A stretch of DNA of 64,000 bases from Picochlorum sp. SENEW3 (lineage: Eukaryota), in the NCBI GenBank assembly GCA_034226945.1, contig CP120458.1, forward strand, positions 930,001 to 994,000. The letters are read 5' to 3'. Made by a program: the position numbers and the translations under genes. Under the pieces are notes generated by a model. It worked only from the letters and a program-made list of their open reading frames with translations, searched no databases and had not been told where the DNA came from. Of this stretch, positions 22,204-61,803 are shown piece after piece; within the stretch, counting starts at the first letter, position 1, and each line of letters begins with the position of its first letter.

Positions 22204-22392
22204 AATGTTTTATTTCTGCCACTGGCTTGGCGAACGGTTTCATCTGAATGCATGGCATCATGAGAACTGCATCTTCATGTGCCTCTCAAGTGCATCAAAT
22301 ATGGATGGATATTGTCCCCAATGGGCTGCTTTATACTTATTTTTATATTTGTTGATTTCAATTAATGGGTCTATGCATGGTAGGATGCGGTG

Positions 22393-23685
22393 ATGGTCGG
22401 ACAGACAAGGTTGCTGTGCATGTCTGACATGTCCTTGCACCAGCACATACGAAGAACGTGCCACGGTGCTTTATTAGCAACATCATGGAGACATAATATC
22501 TACCAAAATGCTATGAAGCAACGCAGAGCCGTAGCATACTCATCTGATGGGACCCAAGGTGGTTTGAACAATGACTGTCACACGTTTTCGGTATCAGAGC
22601 TGGATTTGAAGGACAATGGTCAGAAACTGCGATTGGATGCGTTTCTATCGAACAAACTTTCTCATCAAGAGACGAGTAGGGCGAGGCTGCAGTCCACCAT
22701 CAAGCAAGGCAGGGTGCTGGTGAATGGCACAGTCCTCACAAAGGCATCATATGCTGTCAGAGTTGGAGATTCCGTGGAATGTAGCGTGCTGCCGCCTCCA
22801 CCCCTTCGAGCAGATCCCGAAGATATTGATTTGGACATTGTGTATGAAGACGACGATGTGATTGTCATCAACAAGGAGGCTGATATGGTGATGCATCCAG
22901 CACCTGGTCATACAAGTGGCACCATGGTGAATGCGTTATTACACCATTGTGGCTTGGAATCTGTTGAGTTAGATGGTAATGATGCGGGATCTCTTATAGC
23001 GGATCGAGATGAAGACCAGGGAGGCGTGTCTCTGATGCCAGCCTCTTCATCTAGGTCTCAGAATGTGATTCGACCAGGAATAGTACATAGATTAGATAAG
23101 GGCACGACAGGGTTGGTTGTTGTGGCAAAGACAGATGTAGCCCATGCATCGTTGTCGGCTCAATTTAAAGACCGGACTGTCAGCAGAACGTATCTGTCAC
23201 TGACACTGGGTGTTCCTACACCATCAGAAGCTAGAATACGTACAAATATCGGCAGAGATTTCCGTGATCGGAAGAAAATGGCTGCATTTGAGTATGCATG
23301 TACACGGGGGAAGTCAGCTGCGAGCAACTATACTGTGTTGGAGACATTGGCATCAGGCACAGCAGCGCTGGTATCATGGAAGCTGGAGACGGGAAGGACC
23401 CATCAGATACGAGTCCATGCCAAACACATCCGCCATCCATTATTCGGTGATGATACATACAGCGGCTCTGTCTCTTCTGCAACGAGGGTCATTGGACAAG
23501 GTAAATCTGCTCGGATAGCCCAGGTACACAAGCTTGTACAAGTACTGAACAATCGCCCAGCATTGCATGCACAAACCCTTGGGTTTGAACACCCAACCAG
23601 ACCAAATAAAGAACGACTTGTATTCTCATGTGATCCTCCAGAAGACTTTGCACTCGTTTTACAGTCATTACGTCATGAATTGTAA
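22393..23685 (+). CDS. RluA/RluD-family RNA pseudouridine synthase with S4 domain, organelle-targeted
   Basis: RLDAFL (S4), IVYEDDDVIVINK, RPGIVHRLDKGTTG (catalytic Asp), LETGRTHQIRVH, LHAQTLGFEHP. Confidence 0.92.
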   Translation: MVGQTRLLCMSDMSLHQHIRRTCHGALLATSWRHNIYQNAMKQRRAVAYSSDGTQGGLNNDCHTFSVSELDLKDNGQKLRLDAFLSNKLSHQETSRARLQSTIKQGRVLVNGTVLTKASYAVRVGDSVECSVLPPPPLRADPEDIDLDIVYEDDDVIVINKEADMVMHPAPGHTSGTMVNALLHHCGLESVELDGNDAGSLIADRDEDQGGVSLMPASSSRSQNVIRPGIVHRLDKGTTGLVVVAKTDVAHASLSAQFKDRTVSRTYLSLTLGVPTPSEARIRTNIGRDFRDRKKMAAFEYACTRGKSAASNYTVLETLASGTAALVSWKLETGRTHQIRVHAKHIRHPLFGDDTYSGSVSSATRVIGQGKSARIAQVHKLVQVLNNRPALHAQTLGFEHPTRPNKERLVFSCDPPEDFALVLQSLRHEL

Positions 23686-23694
23686 TTTATTTGT

Positions 23695-24405
23695 TCAAGA
23701 ATCCACATCCATCCTCATGGTATCGCCTGTCGGACACACATTGCCTTGACTTTCCTCCTCCTCCATGTTACTCTTCGTAACTAACGATGACCCTCCAACA
23801 TATGGCACAATAGCCATGCAATGAGGTGCCGTGTCGTCCTCATCTCTACTCGCATTCTCTAGTCTCTCACCGATGCGTATACTTTGGGATGGATTTGGCA
23901 CCGTGATCATATCACGAGGATACCAATCGTGCCGATGATGATGATACCCTGGAGGTAAATGCACTTTGATTGTACTCACACCATCCTTCAACACATCACT
24001 GCCTGTCCCTATTCCAGACATGGATGCATCATCATTATGATTATTAATAATATTATTGTCATGGTTTGTCGTATACATGTGTGGATCCTCACAACTCTTG
24101 CCCTCATCATGTGTTGTTGTGGCAGAAGTCATGTCAGCCCCACCAGGAAATGCTGCTGCTGTCATCAACTTCTTTGCACGGTCGTCATCGTCACTATATA
24201 AGATTCCATCCCATTCATCCCTCGCCCGCCTTCTTCCTACTCGTGTCATTGTCACACCCTGCTGCCCCATCATGTCCCCCTCACCCAGCTTCTCCTTCTT
24301 CCTCCTCCTCCCCCAAAGCACATTCGTCAAACCCTGACCAACCGCACCATCACCGCTCGAGTACAGAGAATTCTCATACTCTCTATCACGTTTCTTCACC
24401 ATCAT
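23695..24405 (-). CDS. Hypothetical low-complexity protein
   Basis: Open frame of ~236 aa with basic clusters and a MAIVPY motif; no recognisable domain; 5' end uncertain. Confidence 0.5.
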   Translation of the reverse strand: MMVKKRDREYENSLYSSGDGAVGQGLTNVLWGRRRKKEKLGEGDMMGQQGVTMTRVGRRRARDEWDGILYSDDDDRAKKLMTAAAFPGGADMTSATTTHDEGKSCEDPHMYTTNHDNNIINNHNDDASMSGIGTGSDVLKDGVSTIKVHLPPGYHHHRHDWYPRDMITVPNPSQSIRIGERLENASRDEDDTAPHCMAIVPYVGGSSLVTKSNMEEEESQGNVCPTGDTMRMDVDS

Positions 24406-24914
24406 CCCTTCCTTCCTACAACTGCACTGGCTCTTGTATCTCCTTTCCTTCAAGCCATACTTGGTGCTGTACTAGTGCTCCATTGGAAATGACTCTCGTC
24501 GTTATGAATTAAGAAAAAATCCAATTGAATAATGCATTGGATGGTTGGGTGTCGGTCGTACATGCATTGGTGATGGGTTCATTCCGAAAGATCTTTCTAG
24601 AAGATCTGTAGATCTTTATATATAAATAAAGATCCGGATGATCCGGATCCGGATCCAAGGGGACGAGGAAATCACACATGAAGGTGACCTAGCAGATGGG
24701 GCCTGAGGTGACCTCTCTGCTACAGTTGCAACGCAGGAAGGGATCCCTGATGGCAATTTGAAGACCCCTAGCACTTTCCGGAAAGCATCAGTGATGGGCT
24801 GCGTTGGATTCCCAATAGGATTTTTCCAAAGTTGCTGATAGAAATCCCACAATCGACTTGATCCGCCCTTACAAATTTATTGCAATGTTATTGAACATGG
24901 TGAACTTATTGCGG

Positions 24915-30377: not shown

Positions 30378-31518
30378 TTATTTACACACATAATGATTGA
30401 TGGGGAGGTTTTTCTTGGAATGCCCTTGGGTAAGAGGACTATGTGACACGGTTTGGTATCGCTGTGGAGGGGATTGGTGTTGATAGGCGTAGACATGAGT
30501 AGGAGGGAGATGCTCAGCAGCAGCAGCAGCAGCAGCGTATGTTGGAACGCCATAATTAGGAAACCTTGCTGGAGAAGGAGAAGGAGTGCAGCAACAACAA
30601 CAAGATCTTCCTCTGCAGGCACCACAGCAGCGCGTTTTGCATAGAATAAAGAGAACAATGGCTGCTACATTGAAACAAAAATAGTAAAGCAGTCATCTGT
30701 ACATGATATTGCGTGGGAATATTGCGTACCTCCGACAACGATTGATGCCCCAATGATTGCCCATTTGAATAGTGGTAAACTGGTCCCTGATTCATCCTTG
30801 TATGTCTTGGGGGGAGGAGGTGGAGATGGATATACTGGAGGTCTCCAATTTGCGGTACTTTGAGAAGGAGCGGGGGTATCGGTCCTATTCATTTCCGTCT
30901 GAACGCCACAATATTCAAATGACTCAAAAGGTTGCTCCAAGTCTGTCATCCAGCCAGCATCACACTGACAGGTGCATGAGACGTCTCCTTCTGGATCAAT
31001 CTTGGGTGCTTTCATTCCATGCATTCCACATGAATATGTGCATGAAATCATTTTTGCGTAGTATACAGTATAGGCGCCAAACTGCATCATGTCATAGTTG
31101 TGGGCAAGTGAGCATTATGACAACAACATACATGTTCTGGTTTGAAACAGCATACCTGCTCCTGAGGGAATATTGCATCTGGATCTTTCTCAAGTTTTGA
31201 TATAATCACGTGAGCTGGCACTACATCGTCTGCAGCAAAATCAAAGACCAAGCTGGCATTGTACCCCACGTCTGCCTGCCCTACAGAGTAGTCGAGGGTG
31301 CGTATCTGAACACCGTGCTGAATACCCAACGCATTCTGCTCGAGATTCTGTCGAAGTAAACTAGTCATATCTTCAAATACATAGTGATCTAGCTCACTAA
31401 AGAAGATGGAGAGGTAGACGGACTCTCCATCCCTGTAAAGAGACCTATCGTCATCTGCTCCTGTTGCCACACCACACAAGCACCACCATGCAACAATCCA
31501 CAAACAGCTCAGGGACAT
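30378..31518 (-). CDS. Single-pass membrane protein (signal peptide, EGF-like Cys domain, Pro linker, TM, Cys-rich juxtamembrane tail); 3 exons (introns ~31082-31155, ~30665-30729)
   Basis: CTYSCGMHG..CTCQCDAGW..YC; the spliced TM is followed by KTRCCGACRGRSCCCC; in-frame joins end at TAA 30378-30380. Confidence 0.65.
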
Positions 31519-33263: not shown

Positions 33264-34577
33264 ATGAGTTCCTTCATTCGAAAGAAGGGGGGTGCAGGAA
33301 CGACTGGAGGTGGGTGCCATGCATCTTTTTTCATGACTGAGAGCATGGTCGAATCCAAATTCAATGGGACAACCATCACCATGCTTTGATATCTATGCAG
33401 ATACTGTGGGTACTAGGCCTGGTCCTCATGGGATTCCAGTCGTCTCATCTGGGCATGCTGACTTGGACAAGTTGTATGGAGGAGGTATACCCTTGGGGAC
33501 TCTGAATCTGGTTTCAGAGGATGGCTGGACGTCTCATCATCGATACATACTTCAGTATTTTGTATCTGAAGGACTGGCTGTTGGCCAGGTGCGTGTTTTG
33601 TAATGTTTTACATGGTACATAATGCAGCATAAAAAGAAATCATCCTGCCACAACTTCTCTGTGTGCAGCGTGTTGCCATGGTGACATTCGGATCGTCTAC
33701 TATAGAAGAGTATATTTTAAAGAATATGACGCGGCAGGATGCCGCGAAGGAAGAAGCTGCTGAGAAAGCTGCTGAAGCAGCTCGAGAGGAAACAAAGCTA
33801 CGGATTGCATGGCAGTATGAAAAGTTTGCAAAGAAGAGTGGAAATACAATGCAGAGTGCTTCGACGCCAGCATTGGGGACTCATAAATCACCCATGATGA
33901 GAACACGGTCGCCCTGGTGCCATGATTTTGATATATCAAAGCCACCGTCAAAGGAAGAGTTGGAGAAGACATTGCAGCAACAGGGAGGAGCATGTACCTA
34001 TAGTCTTGCTGCTGGGGATCCCTTTGTGGCAAAGACGCTGTCATATATGAAGGAATTTTCTCAATCAATAAGAGCATCATCAACAGTAGGAAGAGTCGTG
34101 ATACCTTCCCTGGGAGGCATCGAATGGACGGATGCTTCTGATGCCAGGTTGCTTGGTCTTCTGATGCTGTTAAAACAGCATGCACAGCAGACACAGCTCT
34201 GCATTTTTATATCTATACCACTACAAGAGATGTCTCCATCTCTTGCAGCAAAGATGTGTCATGTCGTGGACAGTGTCCTAGATTTACAATCTGTCGAAGA
34301 TATGTCTCAAGTGGTCAAGCTGTCGCCAGACCCGCGCACTGTTGCAGGACATGTAGAGATTAGAAAATTGCCGGCATTCGGTGCACCATCAGCACCATTG
34401 CCGCAGATAACATCGTATGTGATACGTCATAAGAGACGGCGAATAACCATTCGACCTGTCGAAGTGGATCCTGATGCAGAATTTCAACAGCAAGAACAAG
34501 GACAGGGTGGTGGAACGGACATGGCCATGGCATGTGGAGGAGGCCATCCAAGAACCCGAGATACATTGGATTTCTGA
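33264..34577 (+). CDS. ELP4: Elongator complex protein 4; 3 exons (introns 33310-33400, 33589-33668)
   Basis: MSSFIRK start, [42 protein letters not shown], terminal LDF. Confidence 0.9.
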
Positions 34578-49376: not shown

Positions 49377-49781
49377 ATCATCGATTGTCAATCGATGATG
49401 ACTCTATGATGTTACATCATTCACATGTTCATAACCATCATGTAACACAGACTCATCTCCATGTATGTCTATATAAAAAGAGAAAGAGAGCAATGCTGGG
49501 TCTTGATGATGATGATACGAGAGCAATGCATGCCCATGATGGGGCTGTGATGCAAGGGCATGTTGTCAAAACATACATTGTAATTAATACGCATGCACCC
49601 GCGGTAATTCTATAGTATATAATTATTTGGAACCACAAGGTATGCTAGTATGTCTGTAAGAGGAATACAGTGAGGAAAGACGGTGATCTGCGATCACATT
49701 CTGTCTAGCCCCGATCATTCAATAACTGCGGTGCATTGCCTCTTAACTATATTACTATGTGTATGCAGTATTTATATAACA

Positions 49782-52445
49782 ATGATTGGTGGGAAATCTC
49801 TCTCTGGGTCGACCCATCGCTCGATCCCTAATGTCAGAAATGCCCCATTCGCCATGCGAGGTCAAAAACGGATTGGGTTTCCTATTGCTCAGGCATTTCC
49901 AAACATATTGGGAAAAAGTAGGAGCAGCAACGGGAGTGTATCTCCTGATGTGGTGAAGGAAGAGGTGGCCAGGGAAATGCAGTATAGGTTGTCTACCAAC
50001 AGTAGCAGTGATGAGGCCACGTATGCTGCTGTGGCGTGGAGTGTGCATAATCGTTTGGTGGATTCTTTCAACAAGACGCACGAGTTTTGGAAGAGCAAGG
50101 ATCCAAAGTTTGTGTATTATCTGAGTGCCGAGTTTTTGATGGGGCGTACCATGACGAATGCCATCAATAATTTGGGTGTGGAGGGTGAGTATGCGGAGGC
50201 TATCCGTGAGATTGGAAGTACCATGGAGGCGGTGGCTGATACTGAGGTGGATGCTGCTCTTGGAAATGGTGGGTTGGGCCGTCTGGCAGCGTGCTTTTTG
50301 GATTCCATGGCATCTCTGGATCTTCCAGGGTGGGGGTATGGAATTCGTTACAAGTATGGTATGTTCAAGCAGGGTGTGGCCGAGGATGGAAAGCAGATTG
50401 AACTCCCGGATAAATGGATTCCAGAGACGGGGAATCCTTGGGAGATTCGCAGGCCTCAGATTCGGTTCCCAGTTGGGTTTTATGGGTCTGTGGGAGCAGG
50501 GGGTGAGTGGACACCGGCAGAGACTGTGCATGCTGTGGCGTGTGATTTCCCTATTCCAGGATATCATACAAGTACGACATCGAATTTGAGGCTGTGGGAT
50601 GCTGAACCTGTTGAGGAGTTTGACTTGGAAGCATTCAATGCGGGAGAGTATGAAAAGGCTGTGGCTTCTAGAAGAAAGGCTGATGAAATTGTGGCTGTCT
50701 TGTATCCAAATGATGCGACAGAGGAAGGAAAGGAATTGCGTTTGAAGCAGCAGTACTTTTTCGTGGCTGCGTCGTTGCAGGATACGTTGGCAAGGTTTTT
50801 GGAAGAGCATGGTGATTTGGAAAAGCTTCCTGAAAAGGCCATCTTCCAGTTGAATGATACTCATCCAACTATTGCTGTGCCAGAATTGATGCGATTGTTG
50901 ATTGATGTTCATGGAATGGAGTTCAGCAAGGCATGGGATGTGACGAAGAAATGCCTTGCGTATACCAATCATACTGTGATGCCAGAGGCATTGGAGAAGT
51001 GGCCAGTTGCAGTCTTGTCAAAGCTGTTGCCTCGCCATATGCAGTTGATTGAGCAGATTAATGAGACGTGGTTGGAATCAATCAAGGCTCATGTTGAGAA
51101 AAAGGTTACTGATGCTGCTCCAAAGGCCGAGGATCCAGATGATGTGCCAACAGAGGATTCAGAGGTGGAGGGTGCTGTTGATCCTCTCGAGGCAGCCTTG
51201 GCAGAGTACAGCATTGTCCAGGAGAACCCATGGAACAAGGGTGAGATGCTCGTGAATATGGCGTACTTGGCAGTTGTTGGATCATGTGCTGTGAATGGAG
51301 TGGCAGCAATTCATTCTGAAATTATCAAGGAGGATATTTTCCCTCAGTTTGTGGAAATCTTCCAAGAAAAGTTCCAGAACAAGACCAACGGAGTGACCTT
51401 GAGACGGTGGCTTGCCTACTGCAATCCAGAGTTGGCTGCATTGGTGACAGAAGCTTTGGGAACAGATGCGTGGGTGAAGGATGCCACCTTGTTGTCCAAG
51501 CTCAAGCCAATGGCGGAGGATGCAGAGTTTAGGAAAAAGTGGAGGGCCATCAAGATGCAAAGGAAGGAAAAGTTGGCTGCACATATCAAAGAGGTGACTG
51601 GTTATGATGTACCAGTGAATGCCATGTTTGATGTGCAGGTCAAGCGTATTCACGAATATAAACGTCAGTTGATGAACACCGTGTCTCTCATTCACAGATA
51701 CCAAAAGATCAAGGCTGCTTCTCCAGAAGAGAGGGCCAAGATGGTTCCACGCGTGGCCATCCTTGGTGGAAAAGCTGCGTCAGCGTATTACATGGCTAAG
51801 AAAATTGTGGCGCTTGTCAATGCAGTCTCAAAAACGGTGAACAATGACCCTGAGGTTGGAGATCTTTTGAAAGTCATCTTCTTGCCAAACTACAATGTGA
51901 CAGAAGCCGAGGTGATCATCCCAGCAGCAGAGCTGTCCCAGCACATCAGTACTGCTGGAACTGAGGCATCAGGAACATCCAACATGAAATTCGCATTGAA
52001 TGGTTCCCTAATCATCGGTACAATGGATGGTGCAAACATTGAGATTGCTGATAACACTGGAGTTGAGAATCTCTTCACCTTTGGTGTGGATGCAGCAGAT
52101 GTCCCTCGCCTGAGAGAAGAGAGGAAAGATTTCAAGGATTACGACCCAAGATGGGTTGCTGCTTTCGACGCTGTCAGAAAAGGAGAGTTTGGCGATGCTG
52201 ATTATTTCGAAGACCTCGTGGACTCTGTCAATGATATGACGAAAGGAAATGATTGGTTCCTGGTGGCAAACGATTTTGCCACATACATGGACGCCCAAGA
52301 TGAGGCAGATGCATTGTATGCAGATGAGGAAGAATGGACCAAGAAATCCATCCTCTATACAGCCTCCAATGGCTTCTTCTCCAGTGACCGTACGATTCAG
52401 CAGTATGCTGATGAGATCTGGAATGTCAAGCCATGTGCTCCATGA
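49782..52445 (+). CDS. Alpha-glucan (starch) phosphorylase, plastid-targeted
   Basis: YYLSAEFLMGR, ALGNGGLGRLAACF, LNDTHP, KTNGVT, KRIHEYKRQ, EASGTSNMKF (PLP Lys), FSSDRTI. Confidence 0.97.
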   Translation: MIGGKSLSGSTHRSIPNVRNAPFAMRGQKRIGFPIAQAFPNILGKSRSSNGSVSPDVVKEEVAREMQYRLSTNSSSDEATYAAVAWSVHNRLVDSFNKTHEFWKSKDPKFVYYLSAEFLMGRTMTNAINNLGVEGEYAEAIREIGSTMEAVADTEVDAALGNGGLGRLAACFLDSMASLDLPGWGYGIRYKYGMFKQGVAEDGKQIELPDKWIPETGNPWEIRRPQIRFPVGFYGSVGAGGEWTPAETVHAVACDFPIPGYHTSTTSNLRLWDAEPVEEFDLEAFNAGEYEKAVASRRKADEIVAVLYPNDATEEGKELRLKQQYFFVAASLQDTLARFLEEHGDLEKLPEKAIFQLNDTHPTIAVPELMRLLIDVHGMEFSKAWDVTKKCLAYTNHTVMPEALEKWPVAVLSKLLPRHMQLIEQINETWLESIKAHVEKKVTDAAPKAEDPDDVPTEDSEVEGAVDPLEAALAEYSIVQENPWNKGEMLVNMAYLAVVGSCAVNGVAAIHSEIIKEDIFPQFVEIFQEKFQNKTNGVTLRRWLAYCNPELAALVTEALGTDAWVKDATLLSKLKPMAEDAEFRKKWRAIKMQRKEKLAAHIKEVTGYDVPVNAMFDVQVKRIHEYKRQLMNTVSLIHRYQKIKAASPEERAKMVPRVAILGGKAASAYYMAKKIVALVNAVSKTVNNDPEVGDLLKVIFLPNYNVTEAEVIIPAAELSQHISTAGTEASGTSNMKFALNGSLIIGTMDGANIEIADNTGVENLFTFGVDAADVPRLREERKDFKDYDPRWVAAFDAVRKGEFGDADYFEDLVDSVNDMTKGNDWFLVANDFATYMDAQDEADALYADEEEWTKKSILYTASNGFFSSDRTIQQYADEIWNVKPCAP

Positions 52446-52527: not shown

Positions 52528-53436
52528 TCAGAGCCCCAGTGTTTTCAAGTATGATACATCGAGTGTCCATCCAGAGTCCCTCCGAATTTCCGAAAACTCA
52601 AACTGCCTCGACATGATCTCTGCTGCTTCCTCTGTGGTCAAATCATTCAAATCTTCCAGAACTTGGACAAAGTCACGTTCCGTCAATGTTGTCCCTACGT
52701 CCAAATACTGAATCAATGAAATTAATGTATCTTGCACTGCGAATCCAACCAGCCTGACTACCTTGTCGCCCTCAAGAATCCGCCAGCGAGCCTCGACTGA
52801 TGATGTGGATGCACCTGTGATGCTGCATCTATAGTTCATTCGTTGTGCCATCCCATCCCTGTATGTCTCCCAGGCCTCACCCTTCAGCGTATGCACGAGA
52901 TTCTTGCAATCAGATATCAAATCTCCTGGAATCGCCAAAGGTATCACGGGCGGTAAATGGGGCTGCGTATCCAACAGGCAGCCCCAGTTGCCATTACCTG
53001 TACTGACCTGGCCAACACTCTTGATCCTGCCAAAGCAGATTTGATGAATAAATGCACCAGTCTGCTGTTTCGGAATATACCCCAGTTTCTCATCATTCAA
53101 AAGCTTCACAGCAACAGCATTGGGATCGTATCGATTCTCTGGCTCCTTTTCCAAGACGACAGCCGTGTTTGGTCTCAAATTCTGCAACAATGCTTGCCTG
53201 TCGTCAAAGGTCACACCGGCAACTCGGAACGTCTCCATGGGGAGATTCAACCGCAACCCCTCTCGAGCATATATGATATCTGGAAGAATTTCTGATAGAA
53301 TAGACCCGCCTTTCGGTGTGGAATGCATCGCTGCTCGCTCAAACTTTCTTGACCCAAATTGTTTCGTTGGCGTTTGAATAAACGCTTTGGAGGAGAATTT
53401 TCCTGTTGGTAGGGTTCTACATACCCTGAAAATCAT
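52528..53436 (-). CDS. HIRAN-domain protein (standalone from ATG 53436, or terminal exon of the upstream helicase)
   Basis: FRVAGVTF..LEKEPENRYDPNAVAV..KLGYIPK is the HIRAN signature. Confidence 0.8.
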   Translation of the reverse strand: MIFRVCRTLPTGKFSSKAFIQTPTKQFGSRKFERAAMHSTPKGGSILSEILPDIIYAREGLRLNLPMETFRVAGVTFDDRQALLQNLRPNTAVVLEKEPENRYDPNAVAVKLLNDEKLGYIPKQQTGAFIHQICFGRIKSVGQVSTGNGNWGCLLDTQPHLPPVIPLAIPGDLISDCKNLVHTLKGEAWETYRDGMAQRMNYRCSITGASTSSVEARWRILEGDKVVRLVGFAVQDTLISLIQYLDVGTTLTERDFVQVLEDLNDLTTEEAAEIMSRQFEFSEIRRDSGWTLDVSYLKTLGL

Positions 53437-53508
53437 ATTAAAAATACGTATTGGTGTAAACAAGGCATAATCATGGGAAGACAAGTCAGATCTTTGGATT
53501 GGTCTCAC

Positions 53509-56500
53509 TCACTGAGGAGCCCTCAGAACGGCATGGAGGAGACTGTCGATTTCATGCTGACGTAGAGTCTCAGAAGATACATTTCCAGCGAGGGTAGTTG
53601 CTGCTTCTTCGTCTCCTTGGCCAAGGAGATTGTCTTCTTCTTCCCCAGCAGAGGAGGAGTGGGTATCATTCATGGAATGATCCTGCTGTTCTTCAGAGAA
53701 CAAGTCCTGTCGCTTCTTCTGCAAATGGAGGACTTGTTCTTCTATCGTCCCACCTACGATGAGCCGAACGATATGAACATCTCTTTGCTGACCGATTCTG
53801 TGAACTCTTGAGATGGCTTGCTGCTCTATGGCCGGATCGATTGATGGTTCCAAGAGAAAGACGTGATTTGCTCTCACAAGGGTCAAGCCTGCATCCATTG
53901 GAATTTTACATCACTGTGAGATACATGCCGTACGAATCACATAGTGTTTTTTCTTTTGGTATCATACCTTGGGCTCCAGCTTTCTGTGCAATCAGGAAAA
54001 CTTTGATATCTTCATTCTCCCGGAATGATTGAATGGCATGTCCAGCATCCTGCAGTGCAATATTTCAAACCAGATCAGATGTTGATACCAATGGCTCTGC
54101 TTTACCAACTCGACAATTACCTTTGATCTCCCATACAAATGCACGTGAGGGATTTCGTGGGCTTTTAAAGCCAATGAGACGACTTTCAACGCATCTGTGA
54201 ACTGACTGAACACAAGGCTCTTCTCATGAGGGGCTGATATTTTCAAGGCAAGTAATCTCCGCACTAGAGCTGATATTTTTATACTCCAATCTGAATTCGT
54301 CGATACAGTTGATATGATAGGGTCCTCTGCTCCTGTGGGATCTAGATCATTATCGGGTGACCCATGGCGATTTCTAGTGTGAGCAGCAACTCGCAGTACG
54401 TGCCTATGAGAGCATTTGGCCCTGCATATGGGGCATACTGCAGATTTGGTTCCACGAAAAAGATGGTCGCTACATTCGCGGCAGAATGCATGGCCACATG
54501 AAGACCATAAACATAAATCACCATCCACATCAGCCATGCAAACTGGGCATTCAACACCAGGAGATTTGGTCTCCACTTTTGCTGGTCCAAATGAGTCTTC
54601 CTGGACGATGGTCTCCTTTTTCATGCCGCCCGACTCATCTTTTTTTATAGTAACGGAAGAATTTCCATCCACTTCATTCAACCTGTTTGCCATGAATGCT
54701 TTCTTGTGCTGCAAATCTTGAGCTGCTTCTTTGTACTCTTCAACCTTCTTGAGCAGTTTATCAATCTGCTTTAGATTCTTGATGGGATACTCGGTTGCAG
54801 CCTTTTCCACATCAACCTCAATGTCATTCAAAATGGATTTCTTTAGACGAACGGTTGCAGATGACGTGTGCCTATCCCGTAAAAGTCGAAGAAATTCCAA
54901 AATCTTGCTGGTCACCTTGAACCTGGCCTCTACTGCATCCATGTGACACTTCTTCAGGAAATGCTCGTTCTCGGCAGAGATGGTCTTTGAGAGCACTTTG
55001 CATCGTTGTTGAAGTTCATGCAAAATTTTTGTGGCGCATTGATTGATGAGATACTTGATCGGTGTCTCATGTGCTGCTTCAAGTTTCTTGTCAATGTAAT
55101 ACCCAAGCCCAAGCTCTCCATTGAAGAAAGCATATCCTTTCACTCTCCCGATCCAGGAGTCTACAGGCAAGAATTCTGCGTGAGAGGAAGCACCTTCTAA
55201 AATTGCTGGATCGTCTGCGTCTCTTGGCTTTGAAAACCCGAGGGATTCTTCCAGCAGGATGTTGTCAATGGTGATGTCTGTTCCGACCTGCTCTGCAGTT
55301 GCTGCTACTTTTGCCTCTCTTGGTACAGGCAACACCTGACTAAATTGATTCAGAATAGTATCACGCTTAAATACGGTGAGCAAGTTGGCCATGCGTGCCA
55401 GCGTGTAGCGGAAGTCTCTCATAGGAACTGCTGATGCATTCTCAGTGGCCCAATCGATGCTCTCCAATATATATAGCTTTGACTGCAAAGTTCTAATGGC
55501 TTCCTCTATTTTTGCGCGCGAGATGAAACTTTCCAACGGGACAAGATCTGAGCGGACAACCTTCTCGGTCTCCGATAGGTGGGATATGACGACTGTCCCG
55601 AGCGCCTTTTCGGTGGTGCTTTGTTGGTGATTCAATTCCTCAAGCTCTTGCAAGCGCAGATGATTCAGATTCGTTTCAAAAGTTTGCCACCAGGTCCGCA
55701 CGTCCGAAATAGCACTCCATGTATCAAAAATTCTAATATTTGGATATTGGGCGATCTGCAGCACCTCGTGTTTTAGCTTTAGTTCCTGCTCCAGCAACTT
55801 TGCTTCATGAGTCATTGCATGCTCATGTTCACTCCTTGCATTACCTATATAGTCAGATGCTCGCTTCTCCCGCTCCTCTTCATACTTTTGGATTTCTGGG
55901 TGATTTTCATCTGTTTTTCGCAGCATTCGAAGCATCTGCTCTGCTGTGTTGATCTGAATGCGTCTCCAGGCTGACCATGAGCTTGCTGCCAAGGCATCTG
56001 GATCTGGAAGCTTTGCCGCATCCTCTGCGGACAAATCTACAGCTCGAATGCCTTTTTCGCTAACATTTTGAGACTTAATCAGCATCTGCTGTGCTTCATG
56101 CAAAATCTCTCCTGGACTTGAGGACGCAAAATATTTTTCTGGGGATGGCACATTTTCTCCGGGGCTATTCGGCACGTCTGTTTCACCTCTAGAAGGTTTT
56201 CTCTTCTTTTTCAGCTTGTCCAGCAAACGCATAGCCGTTGTATTTAGGTGAGCACATAGCAGTCTCTCCATCTCCTGTAAGTCGCCTTGCTCTTTGTCTA
56301 CTAGCCTCTGAAGGACCTCAGCCATTGAAGTAGTTCCTCCAGACCCTAGTTGGAGATCTCCTGCCATTTCTTGTCGCCAAAATTTTGTCAACTGAGGGTG
56401 AATACATGCCAGTCGAAGCTGATGAAGCGATGATTTCTCCTCTTCTTGGAGCTTATGAACTCTTTTCTCGAACGCTTTCTTGGTTGCTGCGGTGTCATGC

Positions 56501-58497
56501 TCCATGACAACTTGCAATGATTCAACAGCAACTTCAAGAGAAGTATGTGCCTGGCGAGCCTTCTCAACAAGTTGAGAATACAATTCTGACTCCCCTGGCT
56601 GCAACTTTAAAGGAACAAAATGCAAAGAACGTGGTGGAAGACTGAATTCGGTGCGGACAGTCATCTTGTCTGTCCTCCACATAACTGGAAGCAGGAGTTT
56701 GACCAATCGGGCCCAGCTGCTCTGCCTGGCATGCTGTGTACTGCTAGGGCTCTTTAGACCAGATACGACCATCTTCCTCCATACTGTATCAAATCGCATG
56801 TCCACCATACCCAGAAACGATAACAAGGCCTTCAGGTCTGACAATTCATTTGAAGACTGCATGGGTGTCCCTGTGACACACCACCTGTTGTGTGCCAAGA
56901 TTTTATCAGTCATCTGTGAAACCTGACTGAATGATCCAATCATTTGAGCTTCATCTGCCACCATACGAAAAAAATCAATCTTCAGTAAAGCACAATCTGG
57001 TACCAGATATCGCTTTGCGTTCCGGAGTGGCCTATCATTCTTTGACGAGTCATAATGAATTTCACTCTTCAAGACATCAAATGACGTCAATACCACGTCA
57101 GCAACTGCGATTCTTCTAGCCTCCTTCAGAACAACTTCACTAGGATCTTCACAAGGCTGAGGTTGTCCCGCTGCTCTTGCCGCATACATTTGGGCTTCTC
57201 GCACCATGGCTTCTGTTAGTGCCCCATATTTTTTCCTGGATAAGCCAGCCAAAAAATGATCCACAGACTTTTGCATTCCTTCTTGACTGACTGCCAAATC
57301 AGTTTCTTCTCTTTTTCTCTTCTCTTCTCGATCCAACTCACGCCGAATACCATCATACACTTCGACTTTCAACGATCCTCCAGCATGGTTTTGCAGCTCG
57401 CTTGCCCATTGCTGTAACAATGCTGGGGGACAAACCACCAGAGTCCCACCGGACAATTTTCCATGCTCCTTTTTCGTTTTCCTATGGATGGACTCTGCTT
57501 GTTTTGATGCGAGGACGAGGGCAATAATTTCCACAGTCTTGCCCAGCCCCATTTCATCACACAACAACCCCCCAGCTGGAGCAAACTGCACATCACACTC
57601 TGATTCTGACACAAACCGCCCAGAGAAATACTCGAAATAAAGAATAGAATCTTTCATGACAACTGGAACAAATCTAATCGAGGGAGCACACTCCGCCCGA
57701 ACGCTGGATCCATCCACAAAATCATCATCAGTCTGCCCAGACTCTCTATGCAACATCCAAGCTAGTGCGCGCTTCTGATACTTATAGAGACTACATTTCA
57801 ATCCAGCAGGGTCCTGATACTCTTTCTGCCAATCTGAGGGCTTGATAACATTGAATATATTATCTCGAAGATTTGATCCAGCCTGCTCCTTTGTAAGGAA
57901 AAAATTGTTCAGCTTGCTCAATCGACCAAAACTTCTATGCAAGCCCTCTGGATACTCATAGTGCGGAAAACTATCAATTGTTTGAACCAGCTTTTGAATA
58001 TGCTGAACTTCTTTTTGCGCAACACATCTCGATGAATCAATCAATTCCTGTGTAAATGCAATATCGATTCGAAAGTGTGGGATGTCCCTGTTCTGCACAT
58101 GATGAACACCAGACATGTCGCCTTGCGCAGGAATGAAGCCCATCTCATGCAACACAATCTCAACAAAGATCAAATTCCTTCGAATCAACCATTTCAAGCT
58201 GGCCAACAAGGGAGCATCTCGGACCAAAATATTTGAATGCCCATCCTGCACAACAGGCAAACATTGCTTGGCCTCTCCTCCACCTCCCTGTCGAACGCAC
58301 ATAGCATCCCGATGCTCAACGGATATCCACTTCTTGTCAATCTGATCAGCACGAACATTGAACACAATCTGCTCAGACCCCTCTCCATCCCCATCAGATC
58401 GTGTACTAGTAGTAGTAGTCCTTTCCTCTGCTGCTGAAGAGGGAAGGAGTTGAACGAGCGTCTTGTACGCATCTCTATTCTCCCTGCAACAGGCCAA
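53509..58497 (-). CDS. SNF2-family helicase with RING finger (SHPRH/RAD5/RAD16-like E3 ligase), multi-exon; 5' end unresolved
   Basis: LYKYQ, GGLLCDEMGLGKT, TLVVCP..QW..E, DEAQ, WCVTGTP, CIHP, RING CPVC..CGHAFC..C..CPICR, KSLVFSQF, spliced GLTLVRANHV..QAISRVHRIGQ. Confidence 0.9.
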
Positions 58498-58889
58498 GAT
58501 CCATCAACTCATGCAAAAACGTAGACATATACCCATGAATAAACGTACAGTGAATCCAAAGGAAAGTATCCCACCTTTCCCGGCACTTGTTGGTCGTTTG
58601 TCATGCTTCTTTCACATGTCCAAGCCAAAGGCGTTCTTCCCAACTCTACCCATCATCACAGCCCATGAAGACTGGTAGTACATTATTCCTAATGTAAATT
58701 CTTTTCTGGATTCTGATGCATACTTGAATTCAAATGGAAATAGCACTGCATTTTAATTCACTACGAATGCTCTTTTAAGTAGAAGGGCTTTCCCAGGATG
58801 GATGGATTCCGATGCATCCATCAAAATGGCAGAATATTGGATTTGGTGCCCACTGCAGTGTCATTATTAATATCTATTGATGCAATTTA

Positions 58890-59756
58890 ATGGCATCTGA
58901 ACTGGTAATATGCCGCTCAGTTCGGCGGCATTTGCAAACCTTGGGGTACCATGCAGTTCCAACTCAGAAGGAGAGCGAATGCCGAGTTGAAGACATCCAT
59001 CGGCACGTATTTGATAGACTTAATGATACAAGATGGATACAAGAGGTAGTAGTATGGTTGGAAGATACAAAGATTCGGCATTATGACATTGACGACAGGA
59101 GGGGGCTCAAGTCGACAGATGCCACGGTGTGGCAGGAGGCTGTCGGCAAGTATGTGAAGGAATTGAATTGCCCAGTACCAGAGGATTCATCCTCTGATAC
59201 TCAGCCTCGTGCATTGTCAGTGCATGCATTTGTATGGTTGTTGGGGTATGCTGTTGGAGTGGCATACGAAGATGGTGAAGACTATGATGATGTGTTGACC
59301 AAGCACGTGATGCACGCTGGTATTCAGCCAGAGTCGTATGAGCCTAAAACCATATTAGATGATATTGATACGGATGAGGCCCGCGAGGCGTTGAGATCTG
59401 TGTGTAGTATTCTTGGTGTGAAGACATCTGGTGAGATTACTGTGGAGGGTCTGAGTAGGTGTCTGTACAGAGTAGAGCACGAGATTGTTCCCGTTCTTCG
59501 TCGAAAAGGTGACATGAGTTTTTCATTAGATGACGATCAGAAGATACGCCAGGTGATCCCTCTTGGGTTTCAAACAGGAGATGAGCAGGTTGATTTGGCT
59601 GCACGGGTGTTACGAATACTTCATATTAAAGAATTGAGGCGGCTGCAGAACGCTATAGATGACGCGATAGTCGCCCATCAGGAGGTGACGGCAAATCCAA
59701 GGACAGAAACTGGGCGAGGCAATACCAAGAAGAAGAAGAACAAAATGGCCTCATGA
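58890..59756 (+). CDS. RTRAF: RTRAF/C14orf166 (RLL-motif, tRNA ligase complex) homologue
   Basis: VVWLEDTKIRHY..DR..L, PLGF.TGD..AARVLRILHIKELRRLQ..Q..TANPRT. Confidence 0.85.
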   Translation: MASELVICRSVRRHLQTLGYHAVPTQKESECRVEDIHRHVFDRLNDTRWIQEVVVWLEDTKIRHYDIDDRRGLKSTDATVWQEAVGKYVKELNCPVPEDSSSDTQPRALSVHAFVWLLGYAVGVAYEDGEDYDDVLTKHVMHAGIQPESYEPKTILDDIDTDEAREALRSVCSILGVKTSGEITVEGLSRCLYRVEHEIVPVLRRKGDMSFSLDDDQKIRQVIPLGFQTGDEQVDLAARVLRILHIKELRRLQNAIDDAIVAHQEVTANPRTETGRGNTKKKKNKMAS

Positions 59757-59763
59757 TGATGAG

Positions 59764-61407
59764 TTACCATTCGCCTTCCTCGGCATCTTCACTCAGCTCT
59801 TCTTCTTCCTCATGGGTGTCTGGGTCGTAGGTTTCAAGATACTCCAAGAAATCTTCTTTTCTCATGGTATCTGTTCCCCAAAAGTCTTCTAATGCCTCCT
59901 CTGAGTATCCTGCTAACTGGCTTTTTAAAATCTCTGGATCTAGTGCGCGAGTTTTGGTGACGATATCTGAATTCCATATTTTCAGGCCATCAAAGTTAAA
60001 CTCTGTCGACCATCCATCTACGAAATAAAAGTATTCCCATCCTCTTTGTCGTCTCATACCACTCCCTTTGAGTATTTTTAGCTCAAAATCCTCGACGCTC
60101 TTGGTCGCATAGTGATGGATGACTAATCTATCATGAACGGGGAAATCACTCGCTGTTGCTCCTTCGATGGGACTCGTGTCTGTTCTGACTGCAGGATTTG
60201 AACAATTGTATCCAAATGAGTGAGGAGAGTCTGCTGTTCCAACTGTACAGCGAGTATTCACGATTGATTTGACAAACAAATGATGGGTATGCTTGAGAGG
60301 TAGGCATCGTATGTAACTCCGTAGAACACTCCTCAGAGGCTTTGTATCATGCCCAGAGGAACCAAAGAGTATCCAGTGAACCGCTAAAGCGCTGTACTTT
60401 TCAAATTCTGGCAAAAATGCTGGAAGACTCTGAATCGGATGGGTATTCCTAAATATTAAAAATTCGTCCACATCCATAAAGACAAGCCAATGGTGATCAG
60501 GACCATGATCCCTCAAGCATTTTTCATATGCGTAGAGTTGAGGCGATAGTCCATCAACATGACCTTTTTGATCCAGTCGTTCATACACAACACGCCCATC
60601 TACTATATACTGCTTGAGAAACTCATCAAGGGGTGGAATACTCTGATGATCATATAAGTAAATGGGATGTATATCTAGAGAGAGGTGGTGATTCACCCAT
60701 TCCACAATGTAATCATGTTCATCACGAACTACTAAACATGCTGCCACGTAGCTTTCTCCGTCGTTGTATGCGACAGACTCGGGCACAAGATACAGTGAGC
60801 TTGTGAGGTCCATCGGCGGTGACTGCTTTCTCAAATGCTCCTGGCGCTTCTGCTGTCTCCATTCTGCAAATGTTGGCTTCTCTGGCATGGGAGTCCCCTC
60901 GAAAGATGGCAGCGCATGGGCCTTTGTATTCGAACTTGGTACGTCATCAGTGCCCTTGCCATGTCCTCCACGTGTTGCAGAGAATCCCTTTCTCTCAGGT
61001 GCCCTATCAAATGCATGCTCAGCGTCGTTTCCACGAGTCTCCCCGTCCGTGTCATCATCGTAATGGTCTATAATGGCATCAATATTGACATCTCGCGATA
61101 CCTCTTCATCGTAATCAGATTGAGCAAATGGAAACCCGCGCTGCCTTGTCGACTCGTCGCCCCCTGCTTCCTCCTCTTCAAACAACCCTTCAAAGTCAGA
61201 TCCCCGCAGCCACGTATTCTCAGATATATAATCCATAGAAGTATCATCGTCTCGCTCGCCCTTCACGCGTCGATCGGAGCGACGAACGTCATCATTGTCA
61301 AACTGAAAAAGGTCCCTCACAGGTCTCCTTGACAGCGCCCCAGTCGCTCTGCCCACCGGAAGCACCACAGGAACCAGAAGAGATAAAAAAAATAGTATGC
61401 TATACAT
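59764..61407 (-). CDS. Glycosyltransferase family 92/GT-A-like type II membrane protein
   Basis: N-terminal signal/anchor; ACLVVRDE..EWVNHH..YLYD, QLYAYEKC, WLVFMDVDEF (DxD), W..FGSSG, KSIV, HHYATKS. Confidence 0.85.
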   Translation of the reverse strand: MYSILFFLSLLVPVVLPVGRATGALSRRPVRDLFQFDNDDVRRSDRRVKGERDDDTSMDYISENTWLRGSDFEGLFEEEEAGGDESTRQRGFPFAQSDYDEEVSRDVNIDAIIDHYDDDTDGETRGNDAEHAFDRAPERKGFSATRGGHGKGTDDVPSSNTKAHALPSFEGTPMPEKPTFAEWRQQKRQEHLRKQSPPMDLTSSLYLVPESVAYNDGESYVAACLVVRDEHDYIVEWVNHHLSLDIHPIYLYDHQSIPPLDEFLKQYIVDGRVVYERLDQKGHVDGLSPQLYAYEKCLRDHGPDHHWLVFMDVDEFLIFRNTHPIQSLPAFLPEFEKYSALAVHWILFGSSGHDTKPLRSVLRSYIRCLPLKHTHHLFVKSIVNTRCTVGTADSPHSFGYNCSNPAVRTDTSPIEGATASDFPVHDRLVIHHYATKSVEDFELKILKGSGMRRQRGWEYFYFVDGWSTEFNFDGLKIWNSDIVTKTRALDPEILKSQLAGYSEEALEDFWGTDTMRKEDFLEYLETYDPDTHEEEEELSEDAEEGEW

Positions 61408-61803
61408 GCAGAACTTCCATCTAGACTCCCTTTACATGCACAAGACGAGTGATAGCCACGCGAGTCGTTGGGCACACGACGGTATCACAGTTTTTCCCAT
61501 TACATGACGTATATTCATGATACGCCGATTTATACACAATACTTGCTTATTAAAGATGAGATCTTGGCATTCAGAATATACTGGAAGACTCGTCTTTCGA
61601 CGATCAAGACTCGTAAGACGATTACAGAAGAGTCCCGGATCTCTCACAAGATCTCGAGATCTCAAGATGTAGATCTCTGAGAGCCAGGGAGAGATCTACC
61701 TGTAGATGGATATCTTCCTAGGAGCGATCGGATCAAATTGATCGCATTATTTCATTTCAATGTGTCGTATTATTTAACTGGATGATGCATCGGAAGATTT
61801 AGG

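Follow-up and report, generated by a model that had tools for sequence, protein, structure and literature searches.

Gene Organization of the Locus

The window described here is a 64,000-nt stretch of Picochlorum sp. SENEW3 DNA (contig CP120458.1, positions 930,001 to 994,000 of the forward strand; positions below are counted from its first letter), and on its minus strand the gene for an SNF2-RING helicase is followed, head to tail, by a gene for a protein with a HIRAN domain. The last exon of the helicase gene closes with CCT CAG TGA, the TGA occupying positions 53511-53509 as read from the sequence itself. The next stop in the helicase frame is the TGA at 52530-52528 that ends the HIRAN open reading frame (ORF), and the HIRAN-containing stop-to-stop ORF measures 326 codons. 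The HIRAN coding sequence (CDS) itself (52528..53436; ATG at 53436-53434, TGA at 52530-52528) encodes 302 aa, as judged from relatives and an AlphaFold2 model, and is separated from the helicase stop by a spacer of 72 nt (53437..53508, 36% G+C).

In RAD5 and HLTF, the HIRAN domain lies N-terminal in the same polypeptide as the SNF2 and RING domains, and SHPRH has no HIRAN domain. The original prediction for this DNA stated as much, in agreement with established knowledge, and proposed either a permuted RAD5-like protein, in which splicing of a cryptic intron places HIRAN at the C terminus of the helicase, or a close bicistronic pair whose HIRAN protein carries a targeting peptide. Its reading of the helicase end, of the open frame into the HIRAN ORF, and of an 87-nt in-frame stretch bounded by GTGAGT and TTTTCAG is confirmed at every position. 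We nevertheless conclude that the locus very probably holds two separate, closely packed green-algal nuclear genes and that the helicase TGA most likely marks a true boundary between them. The permuted protein finds no support, because helicase orthologues end at or near the same point, 0 of 38 helicase relatives carry HIRAN, the relatives of the HIRAN protein are stand-alone, and the conserved HIRAN ATG lies inside the proposed intron. Homology shows the gene boundaries, and the searches and models show the domain content and the folds; what is said below of targeting, DNA-end binding, and transcript structure, we infer.

The Upstream Gene Encodes a SHPRH-like Helicase

The main helicase exon (54121..58503, part of a stop-to-stop ORF) encodes the SNF2 N-lobe, a long insertion, and a RING finger, as assigned by Pfam and by orthologues of 88-49% identity. 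It is followed by a 71-nt intron (54050..54120, GTAATT...TGCAG), a short exon in which the Helicase_C lobe starts (53968..54049, placed by orthologue comparison and the spliced CDS), a 79-nt intron (53889..53967, GTATGA...TGCAG), and the last exon (53509..53888), which encodes the end of Helicase_C (Pfam and orthologues), an acidic tail, a conserved C-terminal motif, and the TGA. Both introns were verified against relatives, which are given here by P numbers: the orthologues P0155-P0161 lack the 71-nt intron and are continuous across ..GRSK/D.., and P0158-P0161 lack the 79-nt intron and read ..AGAQG/LTLVRANH... The position of the 79-nt intron is common to P0155-P0157, whose ORFs run into it. 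The helicase CDS spliced across both introns contains no internal stop.

In the helicase, Pfam reports SNF2-rel_dom (7.4e-49; residues 242-704 of the 1503-aa ORF), zf-RING_2 (8.9e-07) among several RING models (RING finger at residues 1318-1361), and, in the last exons, the end of Helicase_C; the RING finger thus sits between the two SNF2 lobes, as in RAD5 and HLTF. Pfam detects no HIRAN domain in the 1503-aa ORF, which distinguishes it from the single polypeptides of RAD5 and HLTF.

With residues 200-1460 of this ORF as query, 38 relatives were retrieved. Among them, a Picochlorum protein (51% identity) is annotated as "snf2 histone linker phd ring" and a Joint Genome Institute (JGI) entry as "E3 ubiquitin-protein ligase SHPRH"; a Parachlorella kessleri protein and, at ~1e-36, animal SHPRH also appear, and P0160, P0169, P0171, and P0172 bear the name SHPRH or "snf2 histone linker phd ring". 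The named relatives place the window in a trebouxiophyte green alga close to Picochlorum. The protein has the SHPRH combination of SNF2 lobes, RING finger, and Helicase_C with no HIRAN domain, and its closest named relatives are SHPRH proteins. Linker-histone (H15) and PHD domains, which SHPRH would be expected to have inside its SNF2 N-lobe, gave no Pfam match at E <= 0.01; they may have diverged beyond detection, and because of their absence from the matches we call the helicase SHPRH-like rather than assign it to SHPRH. The nearest solved structure by sequence is that of Rad5 (6l8n, 1e-22). By homology, the upstream gene product is a SHPRH-like SNF2-RING helicase/E3 ligase of the Rad5/16-like group.

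At the 5′ end of this gene, an in-frame TGA (58506-58504, minus strand) precedes the long helicase ORF, and the first in-frame ATG after it is at 58302. The residues just after this stop, ..LACCREN.., resemble the N-terminal region ..SACCRGN.. of P0155, and another in-frame ATG is found at 58536, within the region 58484-58610 (minus strand) of the helicase 5′ end. This may reflect a small intron or a fault in the annotation.

The Helicase Stop Lies at or near the End of Its Orthologues

C termini were compared for 17 helicase relatives. In seven, the ORF call breaks off at an intron position or earlier and is uninformative on the end; in ten, it continues through Helicase_C as far as a stop. 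Of these ten, four have the motif E-[IL]-x-x-L-[FLI]-x-x-[VL]-L-x as their very last residues (P0159; P0160, which is a Picochlorum gene model; P0169; and P0170, which is from Parachlorella), and six terminate 9-16 residues past it. The helicase in the window has the same motif and stops 3 residues later. HIRAN (PF08797) is absent from all 38 helicase relatives, including the ten with a complete C terminus. That orthologues end at or near a shared motif indicates that the TGA at 53509 is the ancestral end of the helicase.

The HIRAN Protein Belongs to a Stand-Alone Family

A word-indexed search with the 302-aa protein returned 4 relatives, all of 296-318 aa and 46-78% identity. An exhaustive search of 1.84 billion representatives gave 678 matches at E <= 1e-3, of which 86 were at E <= 1e-10 and 15 at E <= 1e-30. 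The original prediction had raised the question whether HIRAN orthologues in related algae are fused to the helicase; the 15 closest matches (E <= 1e-30) are all stand-alone proteins of 198-453 aa, aligned over both the HIRAN domain and the C-terminal domain described below. Only three among the 150 matches listed are longer than 600 aa, and these align with the HIRAN core only. A search confined to proteins of 530-2000 aa yielded no fused form in 2802 candidates, which by the search tool's own account is weak evidence. On sequence grounds, then, the HIRAN family is one of conserved algal stand-alone proteins; a literature search at listing level found no description of such a family.

Some members of the wider family have other architectures. 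P0043 (6683 aa) has 16 matched HIRAN stretches and P0026 (638 aa) has four HIRAN repeats (Pfam 4.1e-41); such tandem-HIRAN giant proteins seem unusual. P0008 (453 aa), which has the HIRAN and C-terminal domains, has an FHA domain (8.8e-12) at its N terminus where a presequence would otherwise be. FHA domains are typical of nuclear DNA-damage proteins, and that of P0008 suggests that, in one lineage or more, the family has a phospho-dependent function linked to DNA damage. Because it replaces the presequence, not every family member need be organellar.

Start Codon and N-Terminal Presequence

In P0001, P0002, and P0004, the start region M-[IVL]-x-x-R lines up with the first Met of the HIRAN protein (53436), which is also the very point where the P0002 sequence begins. 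The ATG at 53436 has an A at -3. The ~40 residues that follow (53317..53436) form a presequence-like N terminus, recognized by composition and predicted disorder, which is a putative organelle-targeting peptide. Residues 1-30 include 6 K/R and 0 D/E. In the AlphaFold2 model, built from a 39-sequence alignment and with a mean predicted local distance difference test (pLDDT) score of 88.4, the score is < 50 over most of residues 1-39 (1-4, 6-8, 11-19, and 27-39) and >= 96 from about residue 51. Across the alignment, 32 of 39 family members start with Met and have at least 40 residues before the HIRAN core (median 82.5); acidic residues in the first 30 positions number no more than one in 25 of these 32 proteins, and K+R has a median of 5. 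Many green-algal members begin with Arg/Ala/Ser-rich stretches typical of transit peptides. An organelle presequence would be rich in basic and hydroxylated residues, acid-poor, unstructured, and variable in sequence yet found throughout the orthologues; on composition and disorder the N terminus fits this description, and the protein is probably targeted to the mitochondrion or the plastid.

A second in-frame ATG at 53328 (residue 37) offers another start within the framework of separate genes. A protein begun there would have no targeting peptide and would reside in the cytosol or nucleus, perhaps acting in trans with the helicase. This Met is also present in P0001, its use would enlarge the intergenic gap to 180 nt, P0008 has its FHA domain where the presequence would be, and the family members P0006, P0015, and P0045 have short N termini. 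The second Met is, however, absent at that position in P0002-P0004, whereas the first Met and its surrounding motif are shared with P0001, P0002, and P0004; moreover, the first ATG has its A at -3, and long, basic, mostly acid-poor N termini predominate in the family. We regard initiation at 53328 as unlikely and take 53436 as the start.

The Proposed Intron

The stretch proposed as a cryptic intron (53426..53512, minus strand; GTGAGT...TTTTCAG) begins with GTGAGT at 53512 and ends with TTTTCAG at 53426, spanning 87 nt. The arithmetic is confirmed and homology support is nil. Excision joins ..APQ to VCRT.. in frame and, by script, gives 423 residues with 0 internal stops. The original prediction was also right to call this a typical intron size, the verified helicase introns being 71 and 79 nt, and the G+C fraction of 0.36 compares with 0.37-0.41 in the latter. 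Excision would take out the helicase stop together with the HIRAN ATG and its first 3.7 codons.

Between 40 and 400 nt in length, 34 in-frame GT..AG pairs would remove the helicase stop and create no new one. GTGAGT occurs 18 times on both strands of the window compared with ~31 expected from base composition, and it is therefore not a preferred donor here; the verified helicase donors are GTAATT and GTATGA, neither of them GTGAGT. The chance that the two ORFs share a frame is 1 in 3, and that of 24 stop-free codons at 36% G+C is ~0.18 by a hand estimate. In PMC7896298, about one third of green-algal polycistronic pairs are likewise in a shared frame, as by chance. The splice-like signal is present but not compelling alone, and it exceeds chance only mildly. 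Chance most likely accounts both for the GTGAGT...TTTTCAG stretch, whose splicing would at best be a minor alternative event, and for the shared frame of the helicase and HIRAN ORFs.

Two further ways of reading through this region were considered and rejected. Readthrough of the TGA has only the open frame in its favor and meets the same orthologue evidence as splicing does. GTATGT at 53424, tried as a donor within the HIRAN gene, has a sole nearby acceptor at 53331, and the resulting 94-nt intron would break the frame (hand reading).

Several observations weigh against two fully separate genes. Most of the relatives are ORF calls on unannotated contigs, which are unable to display a spliced fusion. 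GTGAGT...TTTTCAG, with its pyrimidine-rich acceptor and a length usual for introns here, is the best-looking of the 34 in-frame pairs, and GTGAGT..YYYYCAG pairs at 45-160 nt number only three in the whole window (the other two sit within long ORFs, one of them a glycogen/starch phosphorylase-like ORF). The 72-nt gap is far under the stop-to-ATG gaps of 291-1084 nt in 10 other same-strand pairs in the window that have the appearance of separate genes (one ambiguous pair has 143 nt), in a survey that used stop-to-stop ORFs and first ATGs and whose boundaries are ORF-based and putative; a gap this unusual makes some coupling of expression possible. The ORF called for P0001, the closest HIRAN relative with 78% identity, has another 18 codons ahead of the conserved Met; its first three residues resemble those directly after the TGA in the window, and the apparent length difference is 18 nt, a multiple of three. 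By this comparison, the P0001 species (78% / 88% identity) may have the same open, in-frame arrangement. Lastly, the helicase relative P0157 and the HIRAN relative P0004 are each reported on a single 10742-nt contig, which hints at conserved linkage at 61% and 46% identity, respectively.

A further reading is a regulated alternative intron, in which a spliced isoform lacking 53512..53426 would encode the helicase with a C-terminal HIRAN domain, a permuted functional counterpart of RAD5/HLTF, and the retained form would yield the plain helicase together with an internally promoted, organelle-targeted HIRAN protein, so that the fusion would exist alongside the two separate proteins. The tight spacing, the open frame that the P0001 species may share, the linkage that may be kept for P0157 and P0004, and the likeness of the 87-nt stretch to the verified introns in size and G+C all favor such an isoform, and RAD5 and HLTF show that HIRAN is workable together with SNF2-RING. 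Set against this are the helicase relatives, none of which has HIRAN and whose ten complete members all end at or just after the motif; the lack of any fused form among the 150 matches listed or in the 530-2000 aa search; the loss of the conserved HIRAN start, which would leave ~36 presequence residues as a linker; and the donor preferences noted above, with two equally good pairs lying within long ORFs. Such an isoform is very unlikely. If it did exist, a single HIRAN module would serve both nuclear fork remodeling and organelle DNA maintenance.

Gene Spacing and the Case for a Shared Transcript

A spacer of 72 nt is too short to hold a 3′ untranslated region (UTR), a promoter, and a 5′ UTR in series, and overlapping transcription units are the simplest explanation for two separate genes at this distance. 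The bicistronic half of the original prediction holds in part: the genes are separate and 72 nt apart, and the N terminus of the HIRAN protein is presequence-like, but translation of HIRAN from the helicase transcript is another matter. In its favor, 72 nt is below the median inter-ORF distances of 212-260 nt in green-algal polycistronic pairs (PMC7896298), and such loci occur in the trebouxiophyte Auxenochlorella (PMC11291117). The poly(A) signal of chlorophytes is TGTAA, which is lacking from the 600 nt that follow the helicase stop; this is a weak point, as only 15 of the 34 long ORFs of the window have the motif in the 200 nt past their stop. According to PMC7896298 and PMC11291117, algal bicistronic first ORFs have median lengths of 291-600 nt, ATGs are depleted upstream of the second ORF, and the second ORF is reached by leaky scanning. 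The helicase, by contrast, makes a first ORF of ~4.8 kb, and the 4,917 nt that precede the HIRAN ATG contain 123 ATGs, a stretch neither short nor ATG-depleted; reinitiation after so long an ORF would not be expected, by an argument made in PMC11291117. The 123 upstream ATGs make translation of HIRAN from a bicistronic mRNA unlikely, and overall we hold a bicistronic origin to be highly improbable.

Within the spacer, a 13-codon upstream ORF in another frame (53433..53474, minus strand) ends in a TGA that overlaps the HIRAN ATG (ATGA). Stop/start overlaps of this form are known from termination-reinitiation coupling. This ORF is relevant only if the HIRAN mRNA begins upstream of 53474.

Domains of the HIRAN Protein

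The HIRAN domain (53002..53199, minus strand) covers residues 80-145 by Pfam, with a fold of about residues 66-158 (PF08797, 1.3e-10 in the 302-aa protein). In the HIRAN ORF, PF08797 scores 1.5e-10 and 41.2 bits, above the family cut-off of 24.7, and 39 of 39 aligned family members match it. A profile search against the Protein Data Bank (PDB) returned lp_0118 (3k2y, 1.5e-10) and the HLTF HIRAN domain (3.2e-08), and a structural search with Foldseek returned 3k2y (2.1e-05) and the HLTF HIRAN domain 4xzg (1.9e-04), with a probability of 1.00 to 3k2y, 4xzg, 4xzf, and 4s0n. N101, D104, and A107 are invariant across the 39 sequences and align with the HLTF stretch NPYDKNA, which we take to line the pocket for the DNA 3′ end. 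The domain keeps this N..D..A motif and, by analogy with HLTF, may bind DNA 3′ ends.

The C-terminal domain (residues 163-302; 52531..52950, minus strand) belongs to no Pfam family. The fold search with the full model was dominated by HIRAN. Modeled alone, the C-terminal domain has a pLDDT of 95.8, and Foldseek found no fold match in the PDB for this model at E <= 0.001, T4 endonuclease VII appearing at rank 29 with E 1.5. The highest-ranked cluster in the ESM Atlas bears the name "HNH endonuclease family protein" (0.95, 189/256 features), and PF01844 (HNH) matches one of 39 family members weakly, at E 0.29. A CxxC...H...CxxCH pattern is present in the C-terminal domain of the distant relatives P0036, P0037, P0045, and P0103; the pattern is also kept in P0066 and P0134, and it is lost in the window protein and its close relatives. 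At those columns the window protein reads CSIT.., ..EARW.., and ..ISLIQ.., so that the catalytic His and the zinc-binding CxxC pairs of the beta-beta-alpha-Me motif of HNH nucleases are missing. As a lead only, the C-terminal domain may be an HNH-like module, degenerate through loss of its Cys and His residues, in which case it would be nuclease-inactive. The distribution of the pattern across the aligned sequences suggests a family split into an active-nuclease branch and an inactivated branch.

Neighboring Genes

Genes are densely packed in the window, where convergent ORFs end within 7-82 nt of each other. A plus-strand ORF of 923 codons (49674-52445), glycogen/starch phosphorylase-like by eye, ends 82 nt from the HIRAN stop at 52528, and at this distance the 3′ UTRs of the two genes must overlap or be very short. 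Elsewhere, the convergent long ORFs 58881-59756 (plus strand) and 59764-61431 (minus strand) end 7 nt apart, and those at 22384-23685 (plus) and 23695-24471 (minus) end 9 nt apart. These 7- and 9-nt gaps reflect extreme compaction, probably with overlapping transcript 3′ ends.

TGTAA, counted above within 200 nt past the stop in 15 of 34 long ORFs, has a background of 0.66 per kb per strand; the counts fit a poly(A) signal role in about half of the genes in the window. Like the helicase stop, the HIRAN stop has no TGTAA within 600 nt downstream. A scan that joined ORFs by local splice consensus gave too many combinations; it yielded two more plausible introns, with putative donors GTATGC at 31155 and GTATGT at 34415.

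A Model for the Locus and Comparison with Known Systems

We propose that the locus consists of two genes arranged head to tail on the minus strand of a compact trebouxiophyte genome. The SHPRH-like helicase gene ends at the TGA at 53511-53509, and the HIRAN gene starts 72 nt on, at the ATG at 53436, and encodes a 302-aa stand-alone protein. This protein comprises a putative presequence that is basic and disordered, a HIRAN domain, and a well-folded C-terminal domain, which may be an HNH-like module without catalytic activity. The promoter and 5′ UTR of the HIRAN gene would overlap the 3′ coding end or 3′ UTR of the helicase gene. The locus is then largely ordinary, apart from its tight spacing and an uncharacterized algal HIRAN family. 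Had the permuted RAD5 been borne out, it would have offered a notable example of domain shuffling via intron retention; the evidence indicates an ordinary gene boundary. The stand-alone HIRAN protein becomes a candidate organelle DNA-end or replication-fork factor, and the 72-nt head-to-tail gap behind a 4.8-kb ORF becomes a test case for the packing of promoters and terminators in compact picoalgal genomes.

In terms of domain organization, the helicase resembles SHPRH, in that its SNF2 N-lobe and Helicase_C are split by a long RING-bearing insertion and HIRAN is absent. It differs from SHPRH in having no Pfam match to PHD or linker-histone domains and none to PF21325 and PF21324, which animal SHPRH matches, and in an inter-lobe insertion that holds ~600 residues with no domain assignment. 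With RAD5 and HLTF, the locus shares all three domain types; Rad5 (6l8n) is the nearest structure to the helicase, and the downstream protein resembles the HIRAN domain of HLTF in both sequence and fold. Unlike in RAD5 and HLTF, HIRAN in the window is encoded by a second gene further downstream, which has a start codon and a presequence of its own, and the N terminus of the helicase has no HIRAN domain.

The best PDB match of the HIRAN core, Lactobacillus plantarum lp_0118 (3k2y), is likewise not fused to a helicase, but it is a protein of ~100 residues that consists of HIRAN only, whereas the algal protein adds a presequence-like N terminus and a 140-residue C-terminal domain. With the green-algal polycistronic loci of Chlamydomonas, Chromochloris, and Auxenochlorella, finally, the locus shares two same-strand ORFs that lie very close together. 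The first ORFs of those loci are short and ATG-poor and allow leaky scanning, whereas the first ORF here is the ~4.8-kb helicase, with 123 ATGs upstream of the HIRAN start.

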